64,000 nt of DNA from Eledone cirrhosa (Eukaryota): contig OZ024743.1 in assembly GCA_964016885.1 (NCBI GenBank), positions 181,164,001-181,228,000 on the forward strand. The letters run 5' to 3'. The notes under the pieces are model-generated. The model did no database searches. It was not told the DNA's origin and was given only the letters and a program-made list of their open reading frames with translations. Made by a program: the position numbers and the translations under genes. Within the stretch, counting starts at the first letter, position 1. Each line of letters begins with the position of its first letter. Positions 5,246 to 64,000 of the stretch are shown here, in pieces.

Positions 5246-5261
5246 GTGAACATTTATAAAA

Positions 5262-5368: not shown

Positions 5369-5399
5369 ATTTATAAAATAATAAAACCTAAAGAACAAC

Positions 5400-5689: not shown

Positions 5690-5800
5690 ATATTTTCTAC
5701 ATTAGACACAAGACCTGCAATTTGAAGAGGGGGGGGGGTCGATTAAATCAACCCCCAGTGCGTTACTGGTACTTTATTTTATCGACTCCATAAGGAGGAA
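5690..5800 (-). mobile_element. SINE 3' half, longer-tail variant of the same family
   Basis: CTGGTACTTTATTTTATCGAC core plus TTCTAC..GACACAAGACC tail. Confidence 0.7.
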
Positions 5801-6133: not shown

Positions 6134-6525
6134 AATAATAATTGTTTCTACTTTTGGCACTAGGCCAACAATTATCCCAGTACATTACTGGTGCTTTATT
6201 TTATCGACCCTGTAAGGATGAAAGGCAAAGTTAACTTCGGCGAGATTTGAACTCAGATCGTAAAGGGCCGTAGCTCTATGCTGCAAAACATGGCGTCCGA
6301 CCCTCTACGGATACTGCCAATCCGATATTCAATAATAATTGTTTTTACATTTGGCACAAGACCAGCAATTATCCCAGTGTATTACTGATGCTTTATTTTA
6401 TCGACCCCGTAAGGATGAAAAGCAAAGCTAACCACAGCGGAATCTGAACTCAGAATAAAAGGGCCGTAACTATATACCGCAAAGCATGTTGTCCGATGCT
6501 CTACCGATCACTGCCAATCCACCGC
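6134..6525 (-). mobile_element. Two head-to-tail full-length (~190 bp) ATT-tailed tRNA-type SINEs (about 6134-6323 and 6330-6525)
   Basis: On the minus strand: A-box-like TGGCAGT, B-box GAGTTCA(A/G)AT, shared body and AGAAACAATTATTATTG-type tail; on the plus strand both are preceded by GATATTCAATAATAATTG. Confidence 0.85.
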
Positions 6526-14527: not shown

Positions 14528-15210
14528 CAGAAATCCCTGGCCTGGCAGTGGTACCGAGGAGTTTTGCCGGTTCAGGATAAACTCTACAGGCATGGAAGTG
14601 CCGTGAGCCGGGCCTGTCCGAGATGCGCGCAGACGACGAAACCGTCCTGCACGCACTCGTCCAATGTCCGAGCATCGCTGACTTGTGGGTTTATGTCGAA
14701 CACCTGCTGTCGCGTGTAGAACGGATCCGGCTATCAGCTGAGTCCATCGTGGGGATTGCTCCGCCGCCTTCCTTTAGCCGGGAAGGGCAGGCAGTTTTTA
14801 TCTGCCTGGTGGCCATGGTAAAAGAGGTCGTATGCTGGACGCGTCTGAAAGGGTTGAAGACGGGTACTTTCCTCTTCAGTGACGCCCTCATTAACTTTAT
14901 CAGGTTTCACCTGAAAAGGAAAATCAGGGTGGAGAGGGAAGTGCTGCCTGTAGAATTGTAGGAGGAAAATTGGAAGAGAGCGCTTGCCCTAGCGGTCAGT
15001 GTAACCGTGGCTTTTTTTGTGGGCTTTCTCCACGAGTGTCCTTCGGAAGTCCCCCCCCCCCCCCTATTGGGGAATTTTTCCTTGTTTCTTTTTTTGTTAC
15101 ATTCTCTATTTTTGTTTTTTTACAAAAAGAAATGCCCATTTGTACCGTCCTGTGATGTCCGGTGCTGTCCTTAATGTTATACTTTGTATCAACCCTTGTG
15201 GTTAATAAAG
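14528..15210 (+). mobile_element. Tx1A 3' fragment (zinc-finger end of ORF2 plus 3'UTR), degenerate
   Basis: QKSLAWQ.YRG.LPV.DKLYRHG..CPRC; aligns to 53898-54638 with an internal deletion near 14946. Confidence 0.9.
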
Positions 15211-15287
15211 TACCAGTAATGTACTCGGTAATTGCTGGCCTTGTGCCAAAAGTAGAAATAATAATAATTATTATTATTATTATTATT
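15204..15287 (+). mobile_element. ATT-tailed SINE 3' end plus (ATT)n
   Basis: AATAAAGTACCAGTAATG..GGTAATTGCTGGCCTTGTGCCAAAAGTAGAAA matches 63592-63647. Confidence 0.85.
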
Positions 15288-25888: not shown

Positions 25889-25959
25889 ACTGCTTTTTGG
25901 AAGAAGGTCAGAAAATGATTGACCTAGCTTTTTCTATGTTATGTGAACTGATAGATATA

Positions 25960-31836: not shown

Positions 31837-32074
31837 TATTTCTTTATTAGCCACAGGGGCACAAAAGAAGGGGACAAATACAAAGGGGGAAGTTTACATA
31901 CAATAAAAACGTGTAAAATGTTATCACAGATGGAATTTAAAAGTTAGTCGATTTTCCCCAATAGAGGGAGACAGTTTATATGGGTAACACATACCCCCGA
32001 AAAAATGTGCAACCCTCATCTCCAGGAGTACGAAGAGCTTGTACTCCTTTCCTCTCCTCCTCCTTTTCCTCAAT

Positions 32075-35000
32075 CTACAGGCTGATATAGAGAGAAGGCC
32101 CATTCACTCGGGCCATTCTCGCCACTTTCACCCACCTTTCATAAAACTTGCTGCGGTACAGCACCTCTCTCTCCATCCTGATTCTTCTTCCAAAGTGGTA
32201 TTTGAAAAAAAGAATCAGTTGTTGGCCGGAGAGAAAGGTGTCTGACCTCAGCCCTTTCAACCTTGTCCACCATACAACCTCTTTCGCCATAGCTATCACA
32301 CAAAGGAAAACCGCCTCTCCTTCGTTTTTGAAGGAGGGTGGCGGTTTGATCATGACAATGGACTCGGTGGTCAACTGGATTGGTCCCACCCGCGACAATA
32401 GTCGTTCTACATATCCCCACAGGTCAGTGACGCCCGGGCAGTGTATGAATGCGTGCGCGACGGTTTCTTCGTCTCGCACGCACCTCGGACAGATCTTTTT
32501 TGCAGGGTCCCTGCCCGGGCGCCCATGTCTGTAGAGCTTGTCTCGAACTGGTAGAGCTCCTCGGTAGCACTGCCAGGCCAGGGACTTTTGGAAGTTGTCC
32601 ATCGGTCCCGGGCGGAAGGTCCCACCGAACAGACTGGCCAGTTCATCTTCCTCCACGCCTAGAGTTTCACCGAGCGCGTCGTCGCACTTGCTGCGGACCA
32701 ACCCTCTATAGAATGACGAAGTGGAGTCTCCACTGATCGCCGGGTCCGCCTGCCAGAGGGCTGTGAGCGCCTGAGCACATTCGATGTGCCAGTCGCCCAT
32801 TTTCCTCGGTCTCTGCTTGACCCAGGACTGCAGCTCGGTCAGTGAGACGAGTCGTGGGAAGGCTCGCCTCACGAACGGGGCCCACACCGGTTGTCCGGTG
32901 AGGAATACGTAGAGATGCCGCAGCCTGAGCGCGTGTTTGCGCATCGTCAACCACGGCATCCCCAGCCCTCCGTTAGAAGGGTGTTGGCAGCAGATGGATC
33001 TTCTTACCAAAGGAGCCCGCCTCTTCCAAAGGAATCGGAAGAGGGCGCGCTCCATTTTGGCGAGCGTTTTGGCTGGACAAGGCACGACGGTCAAGCGGTA
33101 GTAGATGGCGGACGCTATAAAAGTGTTCGCCACCTCCGCTCGACCTTTCAAGGATAGTTTGCACTCGGCCCACTTCTGGGTGAGTGCAAACACCTTGGCC
33201 GTCACTTCGTTCCAGTTCTTCTCCACCTGGAGGTCCGGACCAAACCAGACCCCGAGCAGCTTTACCGGTCCTTCCGTCCAGCGTCCGACGACGCCATCGG
33301 AAGGCATCGGTCTGCCTCTCCACGATCCGAGTTGCAAACCGATGGACTTGTCCCGGTTCAGCTTCGCTCCTGTGAGACTTTCGTATTCCTTTAGTAAGGT
33401 GCCGACTTTCTCGATTTGCGAGGCGCTCGACACCATTACTGTCACGTCGTCGGCGTAGGCCGACGCCGCTTTCCGCAGTCCCGGTTCCAGAGGGATGCCC
33501 TGCAATAGCTCCAGCTTCCGCAGTAGTGGCTCGAGAGTCAGTACGTACAGAAGGGAGGAGAGAGGGCATCCCTGTCGAATGGATCGCGTAATATGGAACG
33601 GCTCCGAGAGGTAACCGTTCACCTTGACCCTTGAGCAGATGTTGCTGTTGTGCATTGCAGCAATCCAGCCCCTGAACACGGGTCCGAAGCCTGCCGCCTC
33701 GAGCACCGCATACAGGTAACGATGGTCAACCCTATCGAAAGCCTTAGACTGATCCAAGTTGATCAGGGCCCCACCGAAGCCGGGTTTACACCCTACCCTC
33801 TCTATGATGTATCGCATGAGGTGGAGGTTGTCGTGTATGGACCTGGTCGGGATCGCGCATGTCTGCGCTTCTCCCACCAGGTTCTCGACGACAAGCGCCA
33901 GCCTCTTTGCCAACACCTTGGCCAAAATCTGTAACTCTGTGTTTAGCAGAGTTATGGGCCGGAAGTTGCCTATGTCATCCCCCTTATTCTCGTCCTTCCT
34001 GATTAGTGTGACCACGCCCCCGGTTACAGAACTGGGAATTCTCCCGTTCTGTTGCCAGTTGCAGTAGACCGCTTCCAGGAGACCGGAGAATAAGTCCGGC
34101 ATTGCTACGTAAAATTCGTAGGGTAGACCGTCGAGACCTGGAGATTTGCGTTTGCCGCATTGGCTCAGCGCGTCCCCTATCTCAGTGGCTGAAATCGGCT
34201 TTTCGCAGAACTTCGCCTCGCTGTCCGAGAGTCGCGGTAGGCCGTCGAGGTATGGACCGAAATCCATAGCCTCTCCCGGCGCGCCGCTCCCCCCGAACAG
34301 CCGAGCAAAGTGCCGCTGAAAAGCCGCACACATCTGCTTCGGCTCACGTATCACGCGTCCGTTTTGGTCCTTCAAAGACCGAATCGTGGACTTGTTGCCA
34401 CTTTTTGCCTCCGTCACTCGGGCCCAGCTAACAGCTTTGGCTCCCTCGTTTCCCAGAGCACGTATTTTGCTTCTGACAACGCAGCCCTCGTGCTTTGCGT
34501 CGAAGAACTGGTCCAAGGCCGTTCTCGTTGCTAGCACGCTGGCTACGTTGCCACTTCTAATAGCCTCTTCTACTTTATCTACCAGTTCCTTCTCGGTTCT
34601 ATTTCTATCTAACGCTAATTCTTTACTAAAAACTATCGAGTCTAATCTAACTGCCCTCTTGAGAGAGTACCACCATCTGTTGTTGACAATGGCCCCTGTC
34701 AAGTGCTGTTTAACTAAAGTGCTAATCCGTCTACTGTAGGCTTTGCTTGTCGGTAACGACAAGTTCAGCTTCCAGTAGCCGGGTCCTTGTCTATGGGTTC
34801 TATCAAGGTTGGCCATGCAGGTCACTAGTTTGTGATCCGAATAGGGAACCATGAACATTTGTGGACAGCTTAACATGTCCCTATCCTTATTTCTAACTAG
34901 AACCCTATCTAGGTACGATCTAGATGTTCCGCTACGATTACTCCACGTCCACAGTGGCGCAGTCGGAAAATCTAGTCGATATCTATCGGCCAGGTCAAAT

Positions 35001-35512
35001 CGGTCGATTAACTGTTTGAGGCTGTTACACCCCCCTTTATCGGGACATGCTCCCACATAGTCCCAACGTGCATCTAGGATTCCATTCCAGTCCCCCACTA
35101 AAAGCAAGGAGCGGGACGTTCCCAGAAAAGTCTCTAGACGTTTGAAGAAGTCTGGCCGCGGTGTCCCGGACGGGGCATATGCGGCCACCAGCCTGAACGC
35201 TCCACCTTCACTACCGTCAACGTCTAGGACCACCAGTCGACCCTCCGGGTCCAGATGTACCGTCTGTGTTACGAGGCCCAGGTGTTTCCGCAGCAAAACG
35301 GCAACTCCGCCCCCACCCCCCGGTTGACAGAGAGATGCGTAGATCTCAAAGTCATCGAAGATGGGGGCCAGCTGTCGCTCGCCGTGGATCCTGGACTCGC
35401 AAATGGCTACCACATCCAAACTGTGCGACCTGAGGTCGTTTAAGAGTTTGCCCTGTTTCCAGGGCATCCCCAGGCCGCGTACGTTCACACATCCAACTCT
35501 TATATTGGCCAT
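32075..35512 (-). CDS. Tx1B ORF2: APE endonuclease + reverse transcriptase + C-terminal zinc finger (1145 aa)
   Basis: NVRGL, AICES, GDWN, YLDR, SDH; KSPGLDG, FRPITLLN, DQSKAFD, RQGCPLS, AYADD, GGLG; CPRC..ETVAHAFIHC. Confidence 0.95.
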   Translation of the reverse strand: MANIRVGCVNVRGLGMPWKQGKLLNDLRSHSLDVVAICESRIHGERQLAPIFDDFEIYASLCQPGGGGGVAVLLRKHLGLVTQTVHLDPEGRLVVLDVDGSEGGAFRLVAAYAPSGTPRPDFFKRLETFLGTSRSLLLVGDWNGILDARWDYVGACPDKGGCNSLKQLIDRFDLADRYRLDFPTAPLWTWSNRSGTSRSYLDRVLVRNKDRDMLSCPQMFMVPYSDHKLVTCMANLDRTHRQGPGYWKLNLSLPTSKAYSRRISTLVKQHLTGAIVNNRWWYSLKRAVRLDSIVFSKELALDRNRTEKELVDKVEEAIRSGNVASVLATRTALDQFFDAKHEGCVVRSKIRALGNEGAKAVSWARVTEAKSGNKSTIRSLKDQNGRVIREPKQMCAAFQRHFARLFGGSGAPGEAMDFGPYLDGLPRLSDSEAKFCEKPISATEIGDALSQCGKRKSPGLDGLPYEFYVAMPDLFSGLLEAVYCNWQQNGRIPSSVTGGVVTLIRKDENKGDDIGNFRPITLLNTELQILAKVLAKRLALVVENLVGEAQTCAIPTRSIHDNLHLMRYIIERVGCKPGFGGALINLDQSKAFDRVDHRYLYAVLEAAGFGPVFRGWIAAMHNSNICSRVKVNGYLSEPFHITRSIRQGCPLSSLLYVLTLEPLLRKLELLQGIPLEPGLRKAASAYADDVTVMVSSASQIEKVGTLLKEYESLTGAKLNRDKSIGLQLGSWRGRPMPSDGVVGRWTEGPVKLLGVWFGPDLQVEKNWNEVTAKVFALTQKWAECKLSLKGRAEVANTFIASAIYYRLTVVPCPAKTLAKMERALFRFLWKRRAPLVRRSICCQHPSNGGLGMPWLTMRKHALRLRHLYVFLTGQPVWAPFVRRAFPRLVSLTELQSWVKQRPRKMGDWHIECAQALTALWQADPAISGDSTSSFYRGLVRSKCDDALGETLGVEEDELASLFGGTFRPGPMDNFQKSLAWQCYRGALPVRDKLYRHGRPGRDPAKKICPRCVRDEETVAHAFIHCPGVTDLWGYVERLLSRVGPIQLTTESIVMIKPPPSFKNEGEAVFLCVIAMAKEVVWWTRLKGLRSDTFLSGQQLILFFKYHFGRRIRMEREVLYRSKFYERWVKVARMARVNGPSLYISL

Positions 35513-35545
35513 GTTGGTGCTGAAAAGTTAAAAGAGGAAAAGAGA

Positions 35546-37444
35546 TCACTCACCCTTCGCCTCCTGGGGACCAGGCCGCACGATTTCCATGGGGGTGTTG
35601 GAGGGGTTGTCTGGATGGGTGGTGGTTTCCGGCGGGGTGGGGACGCAGATGTTTGGTGGGGTGGGGTCTGGTGGGATGGGGGTGTCTGGGGTGGGGAGGC
35701 ATTTGAGAAGGACGCGGTTGAGTGGTTTCACGCAGGAATTCCCCACATCCTTCTCAAATGTTTCTTTTAGGGACCTATAAGTTTGTATAGGGACCCTAAT
35801 CAGTTTTAGGTTCATTTTTTTGCTATTTTTTATAGAGTGGGCAAAAGTTTTCCCTTCGTTCGTAATGGTCTCCATTAGTGTTTTGTTTTCAGTGTTTATG
35901 TAAGTGTAAGTGTAATTTTCTTGTGTTGTGTTTGTTTTTGTCTGTAGTTCTTGTGTGTGCTTTCGTTTTGTTGTAGGTATTTTGTTTACAGGAGGTGGGG
36001 GTTTTGTTTGTGATATTTTTGTTGTTTGTGTTGGTGGTTGTATGTTTGTGGTAGTGTTTGCTGGTTTTTTGCTTTTGTGATGTCTTTTCTTTCTTTTCGA
36101 GCGATGGGGTTCTCCCTCGTCTTCACTGGGTGATGGCGAGATAGCCTCATCTGTTGTATCGTCTGTGTGATTGGGGAGGGGTATGTCTTGGGGAGCTGTT
36201 GTGTCTGTATGTGATTTTGCAGTGGTTTTAGGTGGAGTGAGGTTGGGTGGGACTGTGTTTGTTGTGGTTATTTTTGTGTGTTGGTGTTGTTGTTGTAGTG
36301 GTGGTGTTGGTGGTTGTGTTGTTTTGATGGGTGTTGGCAGAAGAGCCTTTTTTTGGTTCATTAGTTTAGGACAGGAAGCCCTCAGGTGACCCCTGCTAAA
36401 GCAATGGTAACATGAAGGCCGCCTACCCTCAACCGAAAGGTTTATGTAGGTAAGTCCGTCCAGGAGTACACGCTGTGGGATCATAGCTATTCGCTCTGGG
36501 CTCATTTGCACCAGAACTTCAATGCTAGTCCCATTGAATACATCTCTGGGGGACTTGCCTACTGACAGTATTCTGTCTTCATCAAAATTGATGAAGCCGC
36601 ACAGTATCCACCATATGTTCACCTTTGGTGTGACACTTGTGATTCTGATCTTTTGTGTCCTTTTTTCCATGTATGTAGGGAAAAAGGTGTACAGGTTGGA
36701 TACAATTGGCGACACAGAGTAATTTTGGGCCGTCAATTGATCCTTCATCAGTACCGAAATACTCCCAAAAAGTTTACTTCTTTGAATGAATGCAATATCA
36801 TTCATTGAATCTTTGAAAACCAGTTCAATATCTTTCTGTGACAATTGGACTGGTTTTCGGGTAGAATTGGAAACTGTCCTAAAAACTATCGTTTTGAGAG
36901 CAGTTTCCTTGCGAATTTCTACCGGAGAATTGATGCTGAAAGCACCATTTTTTTCGAAGGTGACATATCTCTTAGCGTCCTTTAAAAGGTGTTCAGCATT
37001 TGTTATGTCGAGATATATCAATTGTTCTTTCTTTTGAACTTTCTCCGCAAAGGAGATTTTTGGTTTCTTTGTGGAATCCGTATTGGTGGTGTTGTCATTA
37101 TTGTTGTTATTCTTGTTTTTATTCTTGTTGTCACCGATGTTGGTATCATCCGTATTTTCCTTGGTGTTGTTGTTGTCTTTGATGCTGGTGTTATTGGCGT
37201 TGTCTTTATTTTTTTCTTTGTTGTTGTTATCATTGTTGCTTTTATCATCATTATTGGTTTTGCTGTTATTTTTGTTGTCATTGAGCTGTTTGGTGTCATT
37301 TGTGTTGTTTGGATGTGAATTCGTTTTTTTATTTTCATTTTGTCTTTCCATCTCTATAGTATCTAGTGAAGAAGACGTTGTTGACTGCGAGCTTTGTAGT
37401 CTTACCGCCTCTCCACCACCATTATCGTTGGACGCAGCGTTCAT
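35546..37444 (-). CDS. Tx1B ORF1 (632 aa), CCHC zinc knuckle
   Basis: CYHCFSRGHLRASC; N/T/P-rich low-complexity flanks; lies immediately upstream of ORF2. Confidence 0.88.
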   Translation of the reverse strand: MNAASNDNGGGEAVRLQSSQSTTSSSLDTIEMERQNENKKTNSHPNNTNDTKQLNDNKNNSKTNNDDKSNNDNNNKEKNKDNANNTSIKDNNNTKENTDDTNIGDNKNKNKNNNNNDNTTNTDSTKKPKISFAEKVQKKEQLIYLDITNAEHLLKDAKRYVTFEKNGAFSINSPVEIRKETALKTIVFRTVSNSTRKPVQLSQKDIELVFKDSMNDIAFIQRSKLFGSISVLMKDQLTAQNYSVSPIVSNLYTFFPTYMEKRTQKIRITSVTPKVNIWWILCGFINFDEDRILSVGKSPRDVFNGTSIEVLVQMSPERIAMIPQRVLLDGLTYINLSVEGRRPSCYHCFSRGHLRASCPKLMNQKKALLPTPIKTTQPPTPPLQQQHQHTKITTTNTVPPNLTPPKTTAKSHTDTTAPQDIPLPNHTDDTTDEAISPSPSEDEGEPHRSKRKKRHHKSKKPANTTTNIQPPTQTTKISQTKPPPPVNKIPTTKRKHTQELQTKTNTTQENYTYTYINTENKTLMETITNEGKTFAHSIKNSKKMNLKLIRVPIQTYRSLKETFEKDVGNSCVKPLNRVLLKCLPTPDTPIPPDPTPPNICVPTPPETTTHPDNPSNTPMEIVRPGPQEAKGE

Positions 37445-37662
37445 AATGTAATCAAAATTTTACAATATTTTTTCCAAGATTCGATGGAGAAACATTTTTT
37501 AAATGGATATTCCGCCCCTGTAGGGGTGAAAATGAGTTGACCCATCACCTGAAGGTCCAGACGGGTGGTCAAGTTACACAATGATATAAAATTTAACTAA
37601 AAACTCACGTTTTTTTCTTACATAAATTAACGGAAACTTCTCCGCGAAGTGACACGCGTCTA

Positions 37663-48737: not shown

Positions 48738-48944
48738 GGCGACCTACTTAGTAAATCGTATCATCGTGAGCTCCGCAAAGGTTTGTTATTTCCGTTTGTT
48801 AAAAATTGTCATTTATGGAAAATTTTATTGTTAACTGTTTATAAGCGCACATACATTGTTTTCCGAAAAGGACACCCAAAAAGATTGGGGCCTTGTGCCC
48901 AAAATTTTAACTTTTATTATTATCCAAAAATTTCTTTGAAAAAA

Positions 48945-50946
48945 ATGGCTAATTCCCCTCTGCACGAAGCAGCTGAAAGCCTTCCTCACAAAATAACACC
49001 TCACACCGACACCACCATTGTAAATGTTACTACTTTTGCCAACACAAAAAAAAATATAAGCAGTAGCAATATTTTAAATTTGTCTCAGGCAGACATTCAT
49101 TTCCCGCCATTACCAATGACTGCAGGTGTTAAAGCCTCCACCACCACCACCAGCGCGACAACCACCACCCCCACCACCACCGCGACAACAGAAACAAAAG
49201 AAGAAAAAAATAAATTAACTCGTGATGTCGAAATGAAATCAAGCAAAATGGACTCTTCCGCACCAAAGACGAATGACGTCACCACCACCACAACTGAAAC
49301 AAAAATTAAGATTAACACAAATAACGATAGCAACAACAACAACAATGACATTATAAAACCGACCCTCAGTTTCGCCATCGTAGCAAAACAATTCGAAGCG
49401 TTCACGGTAACTCAAGAAGATTTAGAAAATGCCAAACAAATGGTAAAGAAAGATGGGTACAGGGTCAGCCTCACCCCCCCCCCCCCCCACCTAATAAAAT
49501 GGAGCATCGGCGCCTGTGCACCGTGTCGTATAGAACAATAAATGTAAAATCGCGCCGAGTGGAACGGGCATCCGAGTCCCAAATCCAAAAAGCTTTGGGA
49601 CATGTGTGGGCAAGAAAAACCCACATCAGACGTGGGCAAAAGTATGGAACCGTGGATGTGTTCTTTGAAACACCAGAGGAGGCTAGAGAACACTCCATGG
49701 CCCCATTAAAAAGTGACGACCTCACACTCGTCCCAAGCTATTGTGGCCAGAGACTCGTAAAGATCAGGGTCACCCACGTTCCACCGGCCATCGAAATTCC
49801 CTGGCTAATAGCGGCTGTCCTCGCCGGCATCGAAGCCAACACGAAAATAATAGCAGTAGCAAAAGAAAAGCAGGAAAACTGGTCCGGATCTGGGATGGAG
49901 CTCCTGATCCAAGCGGACCAAAAAAGCATTGAGGAGATCCCAGAGGTAATAGACCTCACTGACGGCAGACACCTCACGGTAATTGTCGAGGGCAGAAGAC
50001 CTAGGTGTGTCGTTTGTGGTGAAGGAACCCACCTAAGGGCTTTCTGCCCTCAGGCTAAAAGGTTGAGGCCACCTCTCCTACCCACCCCAGTGACACAACC
50101 ATCAACACCACCAGTAGCAGAGATGGCAGCAACAACTGTAGCAGCAACAACAGAAGCAACTATAACAGCAACAAACCCAGCAACAGTAGCAAAACCAACA
50201 CCACTACCACCACCAGCAAAACCAACACCACCACCACCCAACGCTTCAGAACTAGCACCAGCGCCTACACCATCCACCACACCACAACCAAAACTAACGG
50301 CTGTGGAGGATTTTCCACTCCCCGGCCTATCACAACTGGATACAGATTGTGACGACGAGGAGTGCGAAACGATATCCGGAAAAAAAAAAGAAACCAAAAA
50401 AGAAAAAATTCTCTTCCTTCCCCCTCCAAAAACAAAATACAGAGGGAAACAAATAAACTAAGAAACAAAAAAGTTAGGACAGATATGCCACCATCCACAC
50501 CAGCATCACCAACCCCATCAACCCAAACACCAACACCATCACCATCATTAACTCCAACACCACCATCACCTACACCACAAAAGTCACCAAAATGCGAAAC
50601 AGAAACAAACCCAAAACAAACGCAAACAAAAGAAAACAACCAAAACGATACACACTACACAGCATTAAATTTGAACAACAAGCCATTATTACACTACATC
50701 CAACACAACACCAGCATCACAGAAAAAGACTACACAACAACCCAAAAATTCACACCACCTCCACACATACAAATCACTCGCATCACACAGAAAACGTACA
50801 TGACACTAAAACAAAAATTCCCCAAAGACATCGGAGACTTCCGACAAGCACTCTCCAGGAGGATTTATAAGGACATCCTTCCTGAGGAGGCCACAAGCAG
50901 TGAAAAGGATGGAAAAGCCGTCCTTCCCCTACGAGAAGTAAGGTAA
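48945..50946 (+). pseudogene. Tx1A ORF1 with two frameshifts, at or near homopolymer runs (~49480 C-run, ~50385 A-run)
   Basis: Three ORF pieces match 21891-23903; intact knuckle CVVCGEGTHLRAFC. Confidence 0.8.
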
Positions 50947-50980
50947 GTGGTCTTTCCCATCTTTTCCACTCCTTTTCAAC

Positions 50981-53900
50981 ATGACCTCACTCAGAATAGG
51001 CAGCATAAATGCGCGTGGCTTGGGGTCGTCATGGAAGCAGGGCCACCTGCTCAACGACCTCAGGTCACTAAACATAGATGTAGTGGCCATCAGCGAGACC
51101 AGAATCTCCGAAGCACAGGCTTTCGCACCGATCTTTGGCGGCTACGATGTGTACGCATCTCCCAGCCGTCCGGGATCGGGGGGAGGAGTTGCTGTGCTTT
51201 TTCGGAGAGGTTTGGATCTTGCCATACGGGCCATCTTCCTGGACCCAGAAGGTAAGTTGGTGGTGCTGGACGTGACCAGCGGAGACGGGCAAGCTTTCAG
51301 GTTAGTGGCCGTCTATGCCCCGACAGGAGCAGGGCGGCCTGATTTCTTCCGGCGTCTGGAGACCTTTCTTGGAACGTCCCGATCTTTAGTGTTAGTGGGC
51401 GACTGGAACAGGATCTTAGATGCACGCTGGGATTGTGTGGGATTAGTGGATAGGGAAGGAGGGTGCAAGAGTCTCACCAACCTGCTCAGACGTTTTGAAC
51501 TGTCTGACAGGTACCGAATGGATTTCCCGAATGTACCAATGTGGACTTGGACAAATCGTATAGGGTCATCCAGATCATATCTAGATAGAGTATTTTGTAG
51601 GGAAATAGATAGGTCTAGCATAGGCTGTCCACAATTCAAGATAGTCAGCTACACGGACCACAAATTCGTGATCTGTGTGCTTGACTTAGATAGGCTTCAT
51701 AGACGAGGACCCGGCTACTGGAAGCTAAACGCGTCCTTACCAGCGCGCAAGGCCTACAGAGACCGGATTAGCGAACTAGTTAAGCGGGCGTTGACGGGGG
51801 CCATCGTCAACAACAAGTGGTGGTTTGCTCTGAAAAGAGCAATTAGAATAGAGTCCATTAGGTTTAGTAAGACTTTAGCAATAGAGAAAAATAGAGCAGA
51901 GGGAGAATTAGTTAGAAAATTAGATGAGGCGCTTAGCAAAGGCATCGCGACCGACGTACTTGCGGCGAAATTGGCCCTTGACCAATTCTTCAATGCAAAG
52001 CACGAAGGCTGCGTTGTCAGAGCTAGGGTGCGTGCTCTCAGACACGAGGGGACGAAAGCCGTTCAATGGGCCCGAGTGGCGGAGGCGCGTCGTGGCAACA
52101 AAGCCACGATCCGGTCTTTGGTGGACCACGACGGGCGCATGCTACTCGATCCCGGGCAAATGTGTGAAGCTTTTCAGCGACACTTCGCTCAACTGTTCGG
52201 GGGCAGTGGCGGGCCGGATCGAGGGATGGACTTTAGTGTCTACCTCGACGGACTGCCGCGGCTTTCGGCCACTGAGGCGGAGTGTTGCGAAAAGCCGATA
52301 ACAAACGCTGAAGTACGGGATGCAATGACTAGTTGCACAAGGGGTAAATCGCCTGGTTTGGATGGTCTGCCCTATGAACTTTACGTACAAATGCCAAACT
52401 TGTTCGGAGGCCTCTTGGCGGACGTCTACTGCAACTGGCAACAGAACGGGAGAATTCCCAGCTCTGTGAGCCGAGGAGCGGTGGCGCTGCTGAGAAAGGA
52501 TCCGAACAAGGGGGATAACATAGATAATTTTAGGCCCATAACTCTGCTAAACACAGAGTTCAAGATTTTGGCCAAGGTGCTAGCAAAGAGGTTGGCGCTT
52601 GTCGTTGGTGGTCTGGTGGGAGAGGCACAGTCATGCGCCATTCCCGACAGATCCATCCACGACAACCTCCACCTCATGCGATACATCGTAGAGAGGGTAG
52701 CTAGGGAACCTGGCACGGGTGGGTCTTTGATCAATTTAGATCAGTCGAAAGCCTTCGATAGGGTCGACCATCGTTACCTAACGGCAGTCCTGAGGGCGGC
52801 TGGCTTTGGGCCCGTCTTCAGAGGCTGGATCGCTGCCATGCACAGCGACATCTGCTCTGTAGTGAGAGTGAACGGTCACCTTTCGGAACCGTTCAACATC
52901 ATGCGCTCGGTCCGCCAAGGATGTCCTCTCTCGTCCCTATTGTACGTATTGACTCTCGAGCCATTACTGCACAAACTGGAGACGTTGAGGGGGGTCCCGC
53001 GCGAACTAGGATGCGGAAGATCCGTGTCAGCATATGCCGACGATGTCACCGTAGTGGTGTCGAACGCCAAACACATCGAGGCGATCGGCACTACACAAAG
53101 AGAATACGAAGCGGTGACAGGAGCAATGATCAACCAGGAAAAGTCAGTGGGCCTGCAGCTCGGCACCTGGAGAGGCAGGTCCATGCCGTCCAACAGCGTC
53201 GTCGGGCGCTGGACGGACGGACCGGTTAAATTGCTAGGGGTCTGGTTCGGTCCAGACCTCCAGACGGACAAAAACTGGGACGAGGTGACGAGCAGGTTGG
53301 CCTCTCTCACCCAGAAATGGGCCGAGAGGAAGCTATCCCTGAAAGGTCGAGCGGAGGTGGCGAATGCGTACATCGCATCCGTCATCTACTACCGCCTGAC
53401 CGTCGTACCTTGTCCTAAGCCCCGCCTGACTGCGCTGGAGCGTTTGCTCTTTCGCTTCTTGTGGAAGGGACGCGCTCCGATGGTCAGGCGGTCCATCTGC
53501 TGTCAACACCCGCTACGTGGAGGGCTGGGCATGCCGTGGCTGATGATGCGCAGACACGCGCTCAGGCTACGACATCTCCACCTCTTCCTCGACGGTGATC
53601 AGGTGTGGTCGCCGTTTGCAAGACACGTTTTTCCCCAGCTCGTCTCCTTGACGGAGCTGCAGTCCTGGGTCAAGCGAAGACCGAGAGGGAGCGCTTGGAG
53701 ACTGGAATGTCTTCAGGCGCTCACAGCCCTCGACCAATCGGGCAATGTGATCGGTGGAAACTCCACCTTGGCGTTCTATAGGGGATTAGTGGAGGGGAAG
53801 AGCGACGACGTACTTGGAGAAACTCTAGGCGTCGACGAAAATCAACTAGCCAATCTCTTCGGAAGGACTTTCGGGCCGGGGCCTATGGACAACTTCCAGA

Positions 53901-54400
53901 AATCCCTGGCCTGGCAGTGCTACCGAGGAGCTTTGCCAGTTCGGGATAAACTCTACAGGCATGGAGGTGCCGTCAGCCGGGCATGTCCGAGATGCGCGCA
54001 GGGCGACGAAACCGTCCTGCACGCACTCGTCCAGTGTCCGAGCATTGCTGACTTGTGGGTTTATGTCGAGCACCTGCTGTCACGTGTAGGACGGATCCAG
54101 CTATCAGCTGAGTCCATCGTGAGGATTGCCCCGCCCCCTTCCTTTAGCCTGGAAGGGCAGGCAGTTTTTATCTGTCTGGTGGCCATGGCGAAAGAGATAG
54201 TATGGTGGACACGTTTGAAAGGGCTGAAGACGAGCACTTACCTCTTCGGTGATGCCCTGATTAACTTTTTCAAATTTCATTTGAAAAGGAAAATCAGGGT
54301 AGAGAGGGAAGTGCTCTCTTCCCAGCATTTTGTTGAAAGATGGGTGAGAGAAGCAAGTATGGCCCGAATGAATGGGCCTTCTCTGAGTATGTGTCTGTAA
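50981..54400 (+). CDS. Tx1A ORF2: APE endonuclease + RT + zinc finger (1139 aa)
   Basis: NARGL, AISET, GDWN, YLDR, TDH; KSPGLDG, FRPITLLN, DQSKAFD, RQGCPLS, AYADD; CPRC..ETVLHALVQC. Confidence 0.95.
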   Translation: MTSLRIGSINARGLGSSWKQGHLLNDLRSLNIDVVAISETRISEAQAFAPIFGGYDVYASPSRPGSGGGVAVLFRRGLDLAIRAIFLDPEGKLVVLDVTSGDGQAFRLVAVYAPTGAGRPDFFRRLETFLGTSRSLVLVGDWNRILDARWDCVGLVDREGGCKSLTNLLRRFELSDRYRMDFPNVPMWTWTNRIGSSRSYLDRVFCREIDRSSIGCPQFKIVSYTDHKFVICVLDLDRLHRRGPGYWKLNASLPARKAYRDRISELVKRALTGAIVNNKWWFALKRAIRIESIRFSKTLAIEKNRAEGELVRKLDEALSKGIATDVLAAKLALDQFFNAKHEGCVVRARVRALRHEGTKAVQWARVAEARRGNKATIRSLVDHDGRMLLDPGQMCEAFQRHFAQLFGGSGGPDRGMDFSVYLDGLPRLSATEAECCEKPITNAEVRDAMTSCTRGKSPGLDGLPYELYVQMPNLFGGLLADVYCNWQQNGRIPSSVSRGAVALLRKDPNKGDNIDNFRPITLLNTEFKILAKVLAKRLALVVGGLVGEAQSCAIPDRSIHDNLHLMRYIVERVAREPGTGGSLINLDQSKAFDRVDHRYLTAVLRAAGFGPVFRGWIAAMHSDICSVVRVNGHLSEPFNIMRSVRQGCPLSSLLYVLTLEPLLHKLETLRGVPRELGCGRSVSAYADDVTVVVSNAKHIEAIGTTQREYEAVTGAMINQEKSVGLQLGTWRGRSMPSNSVVGRWTDGPVKLLGVWFGPDLQTDKNWDEVTSRLASLTQKWAERKLSLKGRAEVANAYIASVIYYRLTVVPCPKPRLTALERLLFRFLWKGRAPMVRRSICCQHPLRGGLGMPWLMMRRHALRLRHLHLFLDGDQVWSPFARHVFPQLVSLTELQSWVKRRPRGSAWRLECLQALTALDQSGNVIGGNSTLAFYRGLVEGKSDDVLGETLGVDENQLANLFGRTFGPGPMDNFQKSLAWQCYRGALPVRDKLYRHGGAVSRACPRCAQGDETVLHALVQCPSIADLWVYVEHLLSRVGRIQLSAESIVRIAPPPSFSLEGQAVFICLVAMAKEIVWWTRLKGLKTSTYLFGDALINFFKFHLKRKIRVEREVLSSQHFVERWVREASMARMNGPSLSMCL

Positions 54401-54642
54401 ATTAAAGGTGGAAAACTGGGAGAGGGCACTTGCCCTGGTGGTCAGGGCCACTGTGGTCTTTTAATGGGCTTTTTCCACAAATGTCCCTTGGAAGTCTCCC
54501 CCCTATTGGGAAATTTTTCTTTGTTATTTTATTTCAACATATGTTTTTTTACACGCAGAAATGCCCATTTGTACCGTCCTGTATTGTCCTGTACTGTCCT
54601 TAATGTCTACTTTATGTGAACCCTTGTGGTTAATAAAGAAAA

Positions 54643-54683
<41 letters not shown>

Positions 54684-58904: not shown

Positions 58905-58927
58905 TTATTATTATTATTATTATTATT

Positions 58928-61900
58928 GTTGTTATTCCTTGAATCTCAGTCATTGATGTTGGTTAACTGGAAAGTCCGTTGGAATGAATATCAAGCCACT
59001 ACCTGCAGCCTCAGATATTCAGGACGTATCGGAGGGTTCTTGCTGTTCCAAGCAAGCATGCCTTTTGAAGCGTTCCAAAAAGCGTGAAGGGGCCGATTTT
59101 CTTTAACCATCCCTGGAAACTTTTGGAGATAGTCCCCAGTGCGCCTATGACAATCGGGATCACTTTGACTTCATGGCAGTTCCAAATCCTTTTCACCTCC
59201 CACTTTAGGTCCTGGTATCGGTTAATTTTCTCCCTCTCCTTCTCTTGCACTCTCGTGTCGAACGGGCAGGCCACATCCACAATCAGACACGATCTTTTTT
59301 CTTTGTCCACAACCACCAGGTCAGGTCTATTGTGTTCCAGTTTTTTGTCCGTCTGTATCCTAAAATCCCACAGCACCTTCACCTGATTGTTCTCCATCAC
59401 CGCCTCCGGCCTATGCTCATACCATTTCTCAGAATGTGGTAAATTATTTACTTTGCACAGGTGCCAGTGGATCACCCTGCCCATCACATCGTGTCTCCAG
59501 CCCTTATAGTGGGTCTGGGCTAGGTGTTTACACTCGGACACAATGTGAGCCACAGTCTCCTCTCTCTCTCCACAGATCCTGCACAGTGGGCTAGCCTCCT
59601 CCTTGTAAATATGGTGCTTCAACCACTTCGTTTTGAGGGCCTGCTCCTGCGCAGCCATTAGCATTCCTTCTGTAGCCTTTTTGAGGTCTCCTCTTCTCAA
59701 CCGGTTCCATGTCTGTGGATCTCTAAATTCAGTTTTCTCAAAGAAGGTACTATGAAGGGATTTTCCCTTAAGGCTGCTCTTCCTCCTTGATGTTATTTCC
59801 TCCTTGGACATCCCCTGGCCTACTGTCCCCTCCTTCAGTACAGTTTTGAGCATTGGCTCCTTACTATAGGTCACGTATTTGTATAGGTTGTTTTTCTCCA
59901 TCTGAACACAGTCCTCTATGCTGATAAGACCTCTTCCACCCTCAGATCTCCTTAGGTAGAGTCTATCGACATCACTCCTCTTGTGGAACATGTTGTAGAT
60001 AGTCAATAGCTTCCTAGTCTTCCTATCCATTTCTTTTTGTTCAGCAACATTCCATCTCAGAATTCCCGCACTGTACCTAATAATAGACACAGCTCGGGAA
60101 TTTACTGCGCTTATGGCATTTCTGCTGTTCAGATGTGACTTCAATATGCTCCTTACTCTCCGAATGTATTCAGTTCTTAACAATTCCTTCATTTTTTTCT
60201 TCTTTATGCCATCAGCCTCCAGAACGCCCAAATACTTGTATCCTTCCTCAGAGTCAATTTCCTTTATCATCTCACCTGTTGGTATCTGGATCCCGCTACT
60301 TCTGCTCAACCTACCCCTCCTCATCACAATGACTCCACATTTACCAATACCAAACTGCATACATATATCACTGCTGAAAATACGGACAGTGTCAACAAGC
60401 ACATCCAACTCCTTCTCACTTTTCCCGAAGAGCTTAAGATCGTCCATGAAGAGGAGGTGATTGATGGTAAGCTCTCCCCTTCCCAACTTGTATCCTGCTC
60501 TCACTTTTCGCAGCATAATGGTCAAGGGCATTAGGGCAAGGACAAACAACAGAGGGGACAGGCTATCTCCCTGGAAGATACCTCTCTTGATCTTCACGCT
60601 TCCCAAGGATACTCCAGTTGATGTCAACTCTGTCTCCCAGGACCCCATACTCCTGCCCAGCAACTGTCTGATGTTATCTGCCACCCTGAAGATCTCCAGG
60701 CTTTTGGTGATCCAAGAATGAGGCACCATGTCAAATGCCTTTCTGTAGTCTATCCATCCCATGGCAAGATCAGTGTGTCTCCTCCTGCAATCCCCCATTA
60801 CCATCTTATCAATAAGTAACTGGTCCTTTGTACCACGTGACTTCTTTCGGCATCCTTTCTGTTCGTCCGGTAACAAGTTGTTTGTGTGGAGGTGATGGTA
60901 GATTTCCTCAGACACAATGCTCGTCAACAGTTTCCACATTACGGACAGACATGTGATAGGTCTATAGTTGGTAACATCATTACCCTTGATTCGGTCTTTC
61001 ATTATCAGAACCGTGGTACCTTTTGTCAACCACTCTGGCACCTCACCCGACACCAAGCAGTCATTGAACATGGCCGTCAGCTTCGGGTGGAGGGATGTTA
61101 AATTTTTAATCCAATACCCCTGCACACCATCTGGGCCTGGTGATTTCCAGTTGGTTAGTTTTTTGGCCTGCCCCTTAAGAGTTTCAACTGTGATACTCAA
61201 ATCAGTTTGTTGTTGTGCCTGCTCACCGATCTCCCTCTGTACTGTCTCAATCCACCCTGCCTGGGCATTATGTCTAACATCCTGCTCCCATATTCCTCTC
61301 CAGAATGTTTTAGTTTGTTCCGCCCCAGGGATCAGGTCGTTGCCTCTTTCTTTCCCCTCAAGCTGTCCAAACAGCATCTTCTGGTTGTTGTCGAACATGC
61401 GGTTCTGTTTATACTGACTGACTCTGTTCTCGTATCGCCTGATTTTTGCACTCTTTGCTACAATGCGTTGCTTCAATTCCTCTATGATAATATTTAGCTT
61501 TTTACTCCTAGTTTTGTATTTTATTTCCAGTCTATTTTTAGTGCCTATGTTTTTTAGTGTCCCATTCAGTAGTGACTCGAGCTTTCCTATGTCATTTTTC
61601 ATTTCCCCGATTTGCCCATTCAGTCGCTTCTTCCACCACGGCTCTGCTCTTTCTTGTCTGTTGTTTCCTCTCGCTTTTATACCAAGTAGTTTCCTCACCG
61701 TATTTGCTGTTGCTTTGAGGATATTGTTGCACTGGTGAAGGCTCCTCGCCTCAAAGTATGGGATGACTTTGTTTACCTTAGTTGTTGTTTCTTTTAACTT
61801 TTTCCTGTCTACAAATCTTAGGTTCATAGGTCTCCCACTATCATTGTTCAATTCATCTACCACTAAATTTAGGATGTCAACCGAATCTTGTCCTAGCCCG

Positions 61901-63472
61901 TCAGCATTCATCTCCTCAGTGGCCGTATCTCTGTTCCAGGTATTATTTATCTCAGTATTCAGATCATTGTCTGCTTCGGGTGGTTCCTCCGTTCTCAGGA
62001 CCTCTTCACCTTCATTTCCCACTGGCTCGCTTGTCTGGCATACTACACCCGCCATCTCCAAGCCATTCTCTCTGCTCAGTTCCTCCAGTTCCAGCTCGCT
62101 TATCCACCCATTAGTTCTTATTACCCGAGCCTGCCCGGCCAATTTTTGTTCATCTAATTTAAATAAACCAATCTCGTTCCAGATGTTATGCATCCGTCTC
62201 CTGTAGCCCCTCTCCTTGGGGTTACTTTTCAGGTAGCATTGCATAACAGTTCTATTCAATTCTTTCGTCCAGTTGGTTCTGGCCCCTTTCCTTCTTCTTC
62301 TTCCTCCAACATCAGCAGTATTTGGTTGACAGTCAGGTTCCTGCTGCTGAGCCAGGGGGCACCTGTTGGGTGAGAGTCTGTCACATGACGTTCTAGTCTC
62401 CATTTCACCGTTATTCGAACTGTTTATGTTCGATATTTAAACACTCTTATCGAGGATTGGCGAATGTATGGTTACATAGCCATCTGTGGATCCGCCATCC
62501 CACTTGGCCCTTGTGTGGCATTATCACCACGCTGTATACGAACACACATAAACAAACAAACAGACAGGCAGAAAGGGCCCCAAAAATGAATAAGCATAAG
62601 TTTCATTGTAATGTAGTGTTCGAATGTCTGACTTAGTTTTTGTTTTTTAAGTTTTAGTTTTTCCCCCCTCTTCTCTGTCCGTCCGCCTGCTTCTCTCTTC
62701 ATTCTTATTTTCTTTACGTTTTTGGGGTTTCTTTTTTTGTTTTTGTTTTTCTGTGTTTGTTTTTCTCGTTTTTGCTGTTGTTGCTGTGCTGCTTTGGTTT
62801 TGTTGTTTGTTTTTTCTTTTTTTCTTTTGAGTCTATCTATATATTTTGATGCCTTCCTCTTTGTTAGTAGTAGGAATTCTATAATGTGGAAGTAGCAGCC
62901 AGCAGGGAGAAGTGGGAGACTGGCGGCGGTAGTGATACTGAGACAGTGGTGGTGGTGATGTCGATACCGAGGCAGTGGTGGCGGTGATGTGACCGTATTA
63001 CTGTAGTGATGGTGCTGTAGCGGTGACAGCAGTGAAGGAGTGAAGGGGTGGTGGCGGCGGTGATGGGATAGTGGTGGTAATGATGGCCGTAGTGAGCGGT
63101 GGTGGTGAAGGTGAAAATGAAAATGCCGTTATCTGGCTGTTGTGTTTAGTGTACAGAGATGATGGGGTGGGTGGTGTATCTAGTTTCTGGTGTTGGTGAG
63201 TTTGGCTGTCCTATATAGTGTAGACAGAGGAGAGGAGGGGGGGTCTTCTTCCATTTATAGCCATTTTCTTTTTTGGATATACAGTGTACAATAGAAAGTT
63301 GGATATTTGAATATTTGAGCCTTATAACAATATATTTTGGGTCCGAATTTTTTGGGGCTCAAGCCGGGTGCTTTACGTAGCATTTGTACTAAGAGTTGTT
63401 ATTTCACAAATGATTTAAATATGTTAAAAATTCAAAACTTACGGGAGCGATTTCATGACCTCCGTCACCTCG
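58928..63472 (-). mobile_element. R4/Dong subfamily B, near full length, intact ORF
   Basis: ~1.07-kb 5'UTR, single ORF, ~80-nt 3'UTR; (ATT)n 58905-58927 and 63473-63521. Confidence 0.95.
59011..62403 (-). CDS. R4/Dong-clade polyprotein: N-terminal conserved domain, RT, CCHC, restriction-like endonuclease (1130 aa)
   Basis: WTKELN..GYRRRMHNIW; KSPGPDG, YRPITCLS, IDYRKAFD, QGDSLSP, FMDDLK, YKYLG; CRICGEREETVAHIVSEC, RHD, RPD..DVACP, KINRY. Confidence 0.95.
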   Translation of the reverse strand: METRTSCDRLSPNRCPLAQQQEPDCQPNTADVGGRRRRKGARTNWTKELNRTVMQCYLKSNPKERGYRRRMHNIWNEIGLFKLDEQKLAGQARVIRTNGWISELELEELSRENGLEMAGVVCQTSEPVGNEGEEVLRTEEPPEADNDLNTEINNTWNRDTATEEMNADGLGQDSVDILNLVVDELNNDSGRPMNLRFVDRKKLKETTTKVNKVIPYFEARSLHQCNNILKATANTVRKLLGIKARGNNRQERAEPWWKKRLNGQIGEMKNDIGKLESLLNGTLKNIGTKNRLEIKYKTRSKKLNIIIEELKQRIVAKSAKIRRYENRVSQYKQNRMFDNNQKMLFGQLEGKERGNDLIPGAEQTKTFWRGIWEQDVRHNAQAGWIETVQREIGEQAQQQTDLSITVETLKGQAKKLTNWKSPGPDGVQGYWIKNLTSLHPKLTAMFNDCLVSGEVPEWLTKGTTVLIMKDRIKGNDVTNYRPITCLSVMWKLLTSIVSEEIYHHLHTNNLLPDEQKGCRKKSRGTKDQLLIDKMVMGDCRRRHTDLAMGWIDYRKAFDMVPHSWITKSLEIFRVADNIRQLLGRSMGSWETELTSTGVSLGSVKIKRGIFQGDSLSPLLFVLALMPLTIMLRKVRAGYKLGRGELTINHLLFMDDLKLFGKSEKELDVLVDTVRIFSSDICMQFGIGKCGVIVMRRGRLSRSSGIQIPTGEMIKEIDSEEGYKYLGVLEADGIKKKKMKELLRTEYIRRVRSILKSHLNSRNAISAVNSRAVSIIRYSAGILRWNVAEQKEMDRKTRKLLTIYNMFHKRSDVDRLYLRRSEGGRGLISIEDCVQMEKNNLYKYVTYSKEPMLKTVLKEGTVGQGMSKEEITSRRKSSLKGKSLHSTFFEKTEFRDPQTWNRLRRGDLKKATEGMLMAAQEQALKTKWLKHHIYKEEASPLCRICGEREETVAHIVSECKHLAQTHYKGWRHDVMGRVIHWHLCKVNNLPHSEKWYEHRPEAVMENNQVKVLWDFRIQTDKKLEHNRPDLVVVDKEKRSCLIVDVACPFDTRVQEKEREKINRYQDLKWEVKRIWNCHEVKVIPIVIGALGTISKSFQGWLKKIGPFTLFGTLQKACLLGTARTLRYVLNI

Positions 63473-63489
63473 TATTATTATTATTATTA

Positions 63490-63521
<32 letters not shown>

Positions 63522-63648
63522 GGTCCCTTTACGGTCTGAGTTCAAATCCCGCCGAGGTTTACTTTGCCTTTCATCCTTACGGGGTCGATAAAATAAAGTA
63601 CCAGTAATGCACTGGGTAATTGCTGGCCTTGTGCCTAAAGTAGAAACA

Positions 63649-63650
<2 letters not shown>
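63522..63650 (+). mobile_element. 5'-truncated ATT-tailed SINE inserted in (ATT)n
   Basis: GAGTTCAAATCC B-box, shared body, tail GGCCTTGTGCCTAAAGTAGAAAC then (ATT)n to 63690. Confidence 0.88.
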
Positions 63651-63690
<40 letters not shown>

Positions 63691-64000
63691 GTTCTTTGAG
63701 TCTCAGTCATTGATGTTAGTTAACTGGAAAGTTTGTTGAAATGAATATCAACCCACTACCTGCAGCCTCAGATATTCAGGACGTATCGGAGGGTTGTTGC
63801 TGTTCCCAGCAAGCATGCCTTTTGAAGCGTTCCAAAAATCATGGCGGAGGCAATTTTCTTTAACCATCTCTGGAAACTTTTTGAGATAGTCCCTAGTGCG
63901 CCTATGACAATCGGGACCACTTTGACTTCATGGCAGTTCCAAATCGTTTTTACCTCCCACTTTAAGTCCTGGTATCGGTTAACTTTCTCCCTCTCCTTCT
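63691..64000 (-). mobile_element. R4/Dong element 3' end (subfamily A-like; continues beyond the window; stop codon 63768-63770)
   Basis: TGAGTCTCAGTCATTGATG 3'UTR and LRYVLNI-stop. Confidence 0.9.

Follow-up and report, generated by a model that had tools for sequence, protein, structure and literature searches.

Retroelements in the window

Near the end of the 64-kb stretch of DNA analysed here (the window) lies a SINE copy at 63522..63648 (+). It is 5′-truncated, with its head missing, and is ~60 nt shorter than the full-length copies at 6520-6340 and 6323-6143. A tract of (ATT)n, which is target DNA (63473..63521, +), separates it from the 5′ end of a Dong-type element on its left (58926..63472, -) that encodes a reverse transcriptase (RT) and a restriction-like nuclease. 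On the other side, (ATT)14 (63649..63690, +) separates the SINE 3′ end from the 3′ end of the next Dong-type element (63691..64000, -), which is cut by the window edge. The Dong-type RT is nearest to that of R2, and the restriction-like nuclease motif was read from the translation.

The SINE is a short, non-coding, dispersed repeat of ~180 nt, and the 64-kb window holds eight pieces of it, six of which reach the 3′ end. The two full-length copies lie head to tail (6127..6520, -), a 5′-truncated copy at 5364-5266 lies together with its target duplication at 5248..5382 (-), and an older variant at 5694..5807 (-) carries ~30 nt extra in the middle. In the five copies compared, the pairwise identity was 83-97%. 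The 5′ side is truncated in four of the six copies having the 3′ end, and the 3′ end is fixed; with these features and a target duplication, the SINE bears the marks of retrotransposition. The extra ~30 nt of the older variant (-) lies between the middle domain and the tail, and suggests that there are at least two subfamilies.

The SINE head may be tRNA-like. A B-box-like word, present at 63539-63549 (+) in the copy at 63522, is located ~70 nt from the SINE 5′ end and has one mismatch to the box consensus; the window contains five matches to this pattern against 6.6 expected, and hence the word alone is not above chance. ARAGORN found no tRNA gene in the head, and Rfam gave no tRNA match at 6100-6560. 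The middle of the SINE may resemble the Deu/Nin domain, which serves only as a lead; short-motif searches for this domain in the supplements of two papers, covering all but file 1 of each, produced no relevant match. A different SINE is present as two inverted copies, 10357-10468 (+) and 11134-11251 (-), which are 79% alike. The latter copy has a tRNA-like head, with an Rfam tRNA match of 33.5 bits at 11181-11240. Over the rest of the window, Rfam returned only low-complexity noise from miRNA models.

Two LINE families, Tx1A and Tx1B, are also present. The full-length Tx1A copy (48738..54643, +) has (ATT)n on both sides (48677-48737 and 54644-54682, +), in the same strand sense as the tracts around the SINE at 63522. 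Its ORF2 (50942-54400) is open and comprises APE, RT and zf-RVT, and its ORF1 region is split over three frames. Partial Tx1A copies are found at 21682-24005 and 14528-15210 (+). Tx1B occurs as two tandem copies on the opposite strand: one (31838..37661, -) lies in (TATC)n and has a 3′ stem-loop with a CCTGT loop at 31857-31853, and the second (25959..31784, -) has the same stem-loop. The Pfam domains Exo_endo_phos, RVT_1 and zf-RVT are present in the ORF2 of both families, for which the nearest solved protein is human L1 ORF2p (E 2e-52, versus 3e-20 for R2). ORF1 spans 637-682 aa, and in Tx1B it carries a weak zinc knuckle. Named relatives were found for the Tx1A RT in Argonauta hians (73%), a cuttlefish (49%) and medaka (39%), so that the host of this eukaryotic, repeat-rich window is probably an octopod. 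The two-ORF domain anatomy and the targeting fit a putative Tx1 membership of both families, whose clade names are those of the earlier note on this DNA.

The ORF2 of Tx1A and Tx1B are 69% identical, yet their targets differ. Both intact 5′ ends and the one intact 3′ end of Tx1A lie in (ATT)n, and both Tx1B copies lie in (TATC)n, which makes the two families a close pair for mapping endonuclease specificity. The identity between copies was 578/665 (86.9%) and 2,178/2,296 (95%) for Tx1A and 5,624/5,797 (97%) for Tx1B. These divergences overlap with that of the SINE (83-97%) and allow concurrent activity, but they date nothing. A Tx1B-like A-rich end remnant precedes (TATC)n at 25857-25891 (-), and a duplicated stretch of ~60 bp was seen by eye beside the Tx1B 3′ junction (~25150-25210 with 25890-25950, +).

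The 3′ ends of the SINE and of the Tx1-type LINEs

Sharing of tails between SINEs and LINEs is textbook knowledge. The earlier note had proposed that this SINE shares its 3′ terminus with Tx1A, and the letters that it quoted for the ends of the SINE, Tx1A and Tx1B were correct. We compared the SINE with the LINE ends of the types found in the window, namely Tx1A, Tx1B and Dong-type. The last 25 nt of the SINE at 63522 scored 20 against the Tx1A end. This score was reached by 110 of the 125,380 non-SINE 25-mers of the window and in 9 of 2,000 dinucleotide shuffles, and the same comparison with copy 5365 was weaker (418/125,380 and 32/2,000, respectively). The proposed sharing was thus above chance for the anchored 25-nt end and was not significant at 60 nt (172/2,000 shuffles); a longer SINE-Tx1A homology was absent at 40-60 nt. 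The TAA in the proposed match rests on a minority base, T being found in two of the six SINE ends and A in the other four. Tx1B had been described as ending similarly; this is right as to the letters, but both Tx1B ends outscored the Tx1A end as the closest. The best window matches to the SINE end (top four, score 29) were the two Tx1B ends and a motif in two Tx1A 5′ UTRs. Dong ends gave background-level scores (window p 0.12-0.59). Only two 7-mers are common to the last 30 nt of Tx1A and the SINE, the loop word and the microhomology of a fusion described below.

The ends of the SINE, Tx1A and Tx1B fall into an ungapped register of 24 nt, in which a predicted hairpin of 3-4 bp with a CYUGU loop is followed ten bases later by AGAAA. 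Tx1A and Tx1B agree at 19 of these 24 positions, and the six SINE ends match 14, 13, 13, 12, 12 and 14 of the 19 Tx1-conserved positions. A match of 13/19 was reached at 14 of 124,932 background positions, two of them with a 3-bp stem. When all 24 positions are counted, the SINE ends agree with Tx1A in 13-17, with Tx1B in 15-17 and with the motif of the Tx1A 5′ UTR in 14-18 of them. The shared stretch is only ~25 nt long, with 54-71% identity, and does not extend beyond ~30 nt. Because the anchored match beats most window 25-mers and shuffles while the Dong ends score as background, the likeness of the SINE 3′ end to Tx1-type LINEs is real but short. The evidence points to the Tx1 lineage without singling out Tx1A; the ATT target alone speaks for Tx1A rather than for Tx1B, which is flanked by (TATC)n.

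The predicted SINE terminal hairpin (63625..63635, +) has the loop CTTGT at 63628-63632 and a stem of 3 bp in the copy at 63522 (4 bp in most other copies). In Tx1A, the 3′ stem-loop (54610..54638, +) is composed of an upper 4-bp stem with a CTTGT loop (54623-54627), an internal loop and a lower 6-bp stem, and its three inner pairs have a pair probability of 0.82-0.86. The distance from the loop to (ATT)n is exactly 16 nt in both elements. Twelve ends could be aligned without internal gaps, with a near-constant CYUGU loop, and their stems differ yet pair: TGGC/GCCA in the SINE, AACC/GGTT in Tx1A, GCC/GGC in Tx1B and GGGC/GCCC in the 5′ UTR motif. The SINE-Tx1A mismatches in the stem look like compensatory swaps. 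RNAalifold, unaided, predicted the same 4-bp hairpin from the aligned ends; 93.2% of the 44 hairpin cells pair, and three of the four pairs show a two-sided change. The covariation score, calculated on 12 rows that represent ~4 independent families and for a motif defined after these ends had been seen, was 0.723. None of 500 shuffles was as high, and slid controls reached at most 0.127. Measures based on pair counts and type counts did not beat the shuffles (152/500 and 310/500, respectively).

Among the 217 CYTGT words of the window, 22 have a stem of at least three pairs (G-U allowed) and eight have AGAAA at an offset of 9-11. Seven words have both, and all of them are SINE or Tx1 ends, the descriptor having been written post hoc. 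With the four Tx1 ends as its sole training set, a covariance model gave SINE ends the first two ranks among 12 non-training matches and recovered four of the six SINE ends, and a sequence-only model with the same training had two SINE ends among its 11 non-training matches. Without the end anchor, the Tx1-only model gave no significant SINE match (E 0.49-2.5).

The predicted stability of the hairpin is different in the two kinds of element. The Tx1 3′ stem-loops have the 6-bp lower stem, inner-pair probabilities of 0.82-0.98 and z from -1.1 to -3.3, whereas no such lower stem is present in the SINE ends, which did not surpass shuffles in their folding (z +0.10 to +1.13). For short SINE ends, the hairpin was in the minimum-energy fold of four out of six. 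In longer context its probability was 0.00-0.16, since in both full-length copies (6134-6520, -) the 3′ arm is taken up by the head, in a predicted 6-bp head-tail helix (probability 0.5-0.95) that rivals the hairpin. When pairing was limited to 30 nt, the hairpin probability was at least 0.4 in four of the six SINE copies and 0.05 in the copy at 63522 itself. All six SINE ends keep the three inner pairs, via G-U pairs where altered. The older variant (5807-5694) keeps the stem with two G-U pairs and an outer pair changed on both sides, and one of the six ends has an altered loop base. Dong as the donor of the SINE tail was rejected, as its ends have neither similarity to the SINE end nor a CYUGU hairpin.

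A SINE-tail-like motif is also present in the Tx1A 5′ UTR just before ORF1 (48883..48925, +), with a second copy near 21829-21870. It has a SINE-type stem, a CTTGT loop, an A-rich run and degenerate ATT units, and is located ~20 nt before the ORF1 start region; the closing pair is broken in one of the two copies. Outside Tx1A, its best match is the SINE tail (80% over 35 nt, E 0.003). No SINE-tail match was found in the Tx1B 5′ UTR, which gave only weak model matches (E 5-9). On the simplest reading, the Tx1A 5′ end would have been gained from a short hairpin-tailed retroposon, by analogy with some crocodilian Tx1 families that took SINE-like sequence into their 5′ ends, the Tx1-Mar families being described as having gained SINEU-like heads (PMC4494074). 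On a bolder reading, the motif may be a second, putative protein-binding site.

Insertion sites, (ATT)n tracts and a Tx1A/SINE fusion

The earlier note had placed the SINE at 63522 between (ATT)n tracts in the Tx1A orientation, and both tracts (63473-63521 and 63649-63690) indeed match the strand sense around Tx1A. Other copies were also said to end in ATT. They do so, but those at 5262, 6134 and 6330 have only 2-3 units, the tails at 5262 and 6134 lie wholly within target-site duplications, and at 15204 the listed copy proves to be a fusion of Tx1A and the SINE. The SINE at 5364-5266 is flanked by a perfect 18-bp target duplication (5365-5382 and 5248-5265), which begins with ATTATT on the SINE strand. 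In the pair 6520-6127, the second copy resides inside the ATT tail of the first and 16 bp are duplicated (6324-6339 and 6127-6142), or 21 bp with the shared SINE end included; given the 83% identity of the two copies, unequal crossing-over is a less likely origin of this pair. A prior ATTATT was the insertion site in all three informative SINE copies (including that at 63522, with ATT on both sides), and this word occurs at 0.13% of the window positions. We did not see a target duplication around the copies at 6520 and 5800.

Target duplications are quoted as 7-18 bp for L1-clade elements and 7-15 bp for RTE (PMC6007223, citing Ichiyanagi and Okada 2008). Because of these ranges, the 16- and 18-bp SINE duplications, two cases only, favour the L1/Tx1 group over RTE. 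The implied nick is at the T|A step of the (AAT)n strand, and T|A is the step described for the L1 endonuclease (PMC13295347). The duplication length of Tx1 is unreadable within pure repeats, and the footprint comparison between the SINE and Tx1A consists of the ATT target and the strand sense. In the ATT tracts the SINE has the strand sense of Tx1A and Dong has the opposite one.

It had also been suggested that the SINE tails seed new targets for Dong. The Dong 3′ ends do abut ATT after SINE copies at 15288 and 63691, but the suggestion itself found no support: four of the six main-family Dong 3′ ends abut ATT without a SINE, none of the four SINE ends outside the large arrays adjoins a Dong, and ATT was target DNA in both copies with a visible duplication. 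Of the six Dong 3′ ends at ATT, two follow a SINE, one follows Tx1A and three follow other pieces of Dong, and SINE ends outside the arrays carry at most three ATT units. A landing site common to these elements is a better reading of the ATT tracts than a product of the SINE tails. It is possible that a SINE insertion, by duplicating part of a tract, makes a minor contribution to Dong targets. Dong is known for targeting TAA repeats.

The Dong 3′ ends (-) fall into a young group at 40908, 44122 and 58926, 99% alike, and a diverged one at 15288, 54683 and 63691, 91-93% alike; the diverged three are those beside Tx1A or SINE ends. A fragment of a second Dong/R4-like family is located between ATT tracts at 19902-21618 (-) and shares 44% of its residues with the main Dong protein across 234 aa.

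The fusion (14528..15266, +) joins a 5′-truncated Tx1A (14528-15210), which lacks its last 5 nt, to the 3′ half of the SINE, i.e. its last ~55 bases, and is followed by (ATT)7 and Dong. At the junction there is a microhomology of 7 nt (15204-15210), a word present in both Tx1A and the SINE, and the fusion retains both hairpins in series. No duplication was found around the whole fusion (14528-15287), and no ATT on its 5′ side. It could have arisen by a template switch from SINE RNA to Tx1A RNA during reverse transcription, by SINE insertion into the Tx1A end with microhomology joining, or by a later deletion joining neighbours, three routes that are indistinguishable because no flanking duplication was found. 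All three place a SINE at the Tx1A/ATT junction in the Tx1A sense; only the template switch would mean a shared particle for the SINE and Tx1A RNAs. In the L1 chimaeras with Alu and small RNAs described in bioRxiv 10.1101/2025.02.02.635956, the non-L1 part is on the 5′ side, and the order in the Tx1A/SINE fusion is reversed. A segmental duplication making both blocks of Tx1A end, ATT and Dong is disfavoured by the identities of their parts, 578/665 (86.9%) for Tx1A and 96.7% over 2,234 nt for Dong, a contrast that is uneven, as the first 310 nt of the Dongs in the two blocks are only 91.9% alike.

The probable partner LINE of the SINE

We consider that an ATT-targeting ORF2p of the Tx1 lineage, from Tx1A or an unsampled sister family, probably mobilises the SINE via the hairpin. 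About half of this probability goes to Tx1A itself, and the donor of the tail may be a third Tx1 family with a SINE-type stem. The earlier proposal of a Tx1A-like enzyme thus gained support as far as the Tx1 lineage is concerned, from the covarying hairpin, the 16-18-bp duplications at ATTATT and the fusion. This support does not single out Tx1A, since Tx1B and the 5′ UTR motif match the SINE end equally or better. The SINE and Tx1 would be a candidate for a pair that works like the stringent SINE-LINE pairs.

In such a pathway, the SINE tail would present a short motif, predicted to form a hairpin, that is common to the ends of Tx1-type retrotransposons. Tx1 ORF2p would bind this hairpin in trans, by analogy with the L2-clade LINEs, in which the loop is read and the stem is swappable. 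Its endonuclease would nick the (AAT)n strand at T|A, where the footprint is seen and the chemistry is presumed. Reverse transcription would then begin at a point 16 nt past the loop, and the duplication would result from a second nick placed 16-18 bp from the first, both steps being likewise presumed as chemistry. In this way SINE, Tx1A and Dong, each aimed at ATT, would accumulate in the same tracts, which would act as a shared sink. A point against this explanation is that annealing of an ATT-tailed RNA to an ATT target is possible with any enzyme.

That point is central to an unlikely alternative, in which the SINE depends on an (ATT)n-tailed LINE from a clade absent from the window (RTE, CR1, L2 or I-type), the Tx1 likeness is due to chance or convergence, and landing occurs by tail annealing. 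In its favour, RTE and CR1 are the usual partners of SINEs (PMC3747384) and both are listed among the active elements of Octopus vulgaris (PMC13282606 Table 1), RTE-derived parts are reported in the Ceph-SINEs of squid and cuttlefish (PMC5786205), the Tx1 match extends over few bases, and the hairpin has a low probability when the whole SINE is folded. On the other hand, the anchored match is at a level of ~1 in 9,000 background positions, or 1 in 60,000 with the stem, the 16- and 18-bp duplications exceed the 7-15 bp quoted for RTE, and a SINE-type motif is found inside Tx1A itself, with one SINE end fused to a Tx1A end. It is quite improbable that the tail was once taken from Tx1 and is now a relic, with a relaxed enzyme needing only an A-rich/AUU end and the terminal GCCA being kept for pairing with the head. 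The 6-bp head-to-tail helix in both full-length copies (probability 0.5-0.95) and the changed loop base in one of the six SINE ends would agree with a relic, as would the rarity of shared tails in L1-clade LINEs, given as three SINEs for >800 LINEs in PMC3472496. Against this, the inner three pairs are retained in 6/6 SINE ends, the older variant 5807-5694 has a two-sided change of its outer pair, and the hairpin reaches at least 0.4 in 4/6 copies when pairing is limited to 30 nt.

Least probable by far is a role of Dong-type elements as carriers of the SINE, either as partner or by 3′ transduction, or the creation of Dong targets by SINE tails. Two of the six SINE ends do face the 3′ end of a Dong, with an ATT tract in between. 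However, the ends have no similarity (window p 0.12-0.59) and the strand sense is opposite, 4/6 Dong 3′ ends are without a SINE, and the array-external SINE ends have at most three ATT units and no Dong. In addition, the two Dong ends next to a SINE do not resemble each other (91%) more than other pairs do.

Among the nearest known systems is crocodilian SINEU/Tx1-Mar, where a Tx1-clade partner was proposed from shared targets and overlapping ages (Kojima 2015, PMC4494074). The SINE studied here is similar in its proposed Tx1-clade partner, shared target preference and overlapping ages, and also in the tandem SINEs that sandwich a target duplication (16 bp for SINEU-3; PMC4494074). SINEU differs in its U1/U2 heads and Mariner target, and for SINEU-1 that study found no LINE with a common 3′ end (PMC4494074), whereas the present family has a microsatellite target, a possibly tRNA-like head and a predicted shared terminal hairpin. 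The Tx1 elements Kibi, Koshi and the crocodilian (TTCC)n/(TTTC)n families are likewise aimed at microsatellites; they differ in that no SINE is described for them in the text available and that Tx1A and Tx1B target (ATT)n and (TATC)n (PMC4494074). Eel UnaL2/UnaSINE and zebrafish ZfL2-1/ZfL2-2 also have a small 3′ stem-loop before a short-repeat end, with a conserved loop and an exchangeable stem, and recognition by the ZfL2 LINEs is reported as loop-specific and stem-tolerant (PMC4176376). These L2-clade pairs belong to another clade and their binding was shown experimentally, while for the SINE and Tx1, with ~25 nt shared, recognition is deduced from sequence comparison (PMC4176376 for the former). 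Maize/sorghum LINE1-1_ZM with ZmSINE2/3, where the maize LINE is one of the L1-clade cases counted above, is alike in having an L1-group LINE and a short 3′ hairpin with compensatory stems and a conserved loop and 3′ flank (Ohshima 2012, 2013; PMC3472496, PMC3747384). This pair differs in being of a plant L1 lineage with ~50 nt shared, and the accessible parts of these papers describe no microsatellite target (PMC3472496, PMC3747384). In the tobacco TS/RTE pair, the common stretch amounts to ~100 almost identical bases (PMC3747384 section 7), compared with ~25 nt at 54-71% for the SINE and Tx1.

In octopus, SINEs are abundant and account for ~11.6% of the genome in Octopus vulgaris (PMC13282606). 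Families of L1-Tx1 and Dong-R4 are reported as well and listed as active (PMC13282606 Table 1), with the partners of the SINEs unnamed in the portions available (PMC13282606, PMC8967140). The tRNA-Core and tRNA-Deu SINEs, OK, OR1 and OR2 resemble the present family as abundant octopus SINEs and differ in that the text available gives them no partner LINE (PMC8967140, PMC4824008, PMC4758252). Table 1 of PMC3747384, a survey of 58 SINE-LINE pairs, names no Tx1 partner. In the literature within our scope, which excluded Repbase, Dfam and most subscription papers, we found no description of a cephalopod SINE-Tx1 pair or of a 3′ stem-loop in Tx1; both may already be on record in Repbase or Dfam, in the 1994 octopus SINE paper or in paper supplements. 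In the sources available, Tx1 is a rarely documented partner for SINEs, and the sole Tx1 case found, SINEU, rests on targets without a shared 3′ end. The covarying hairpin, predicted in two Tx1 families as well as in a SINE, offers a concrete RNA element for the question of whether Tx1 ORF2p is stringent or relaxed, and the stringency of Tx1 bears on when L1-group elements lost tail recognition. A microsatellite is also seen here as an insertion target that a SINE has in common with two unrelated LINE clades.

A wider reading, which we regard as doubtful, joins these elements. Cephalopod Tx1 would be stringent LINEs that read a CYUGU-loop hairpin, with a target that drifts freely (ATT versus TATC at 69% ORF2 identity); a major octopod SINE would have captured the hairpin and so become microsatellite-targeted; and Tx1A would have taken a hairpin-tailed RNA into its 5′ UTR, giving an mRNA with the motif at both ends. 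If this is true, the octopus SINE expansion was driven at least partly by Tx1 rather than by RTE or CR1.

Two other repeats were observed in the window. A direct repeat of 290 bp (328-614 and 813-1089, +) is 89% alike between its copies, each near (TA)n. A long, near-perfect inverted repeat, seen by eye at ~1560-1740 (+), is possibly a fold-back element or an assembly artefact.
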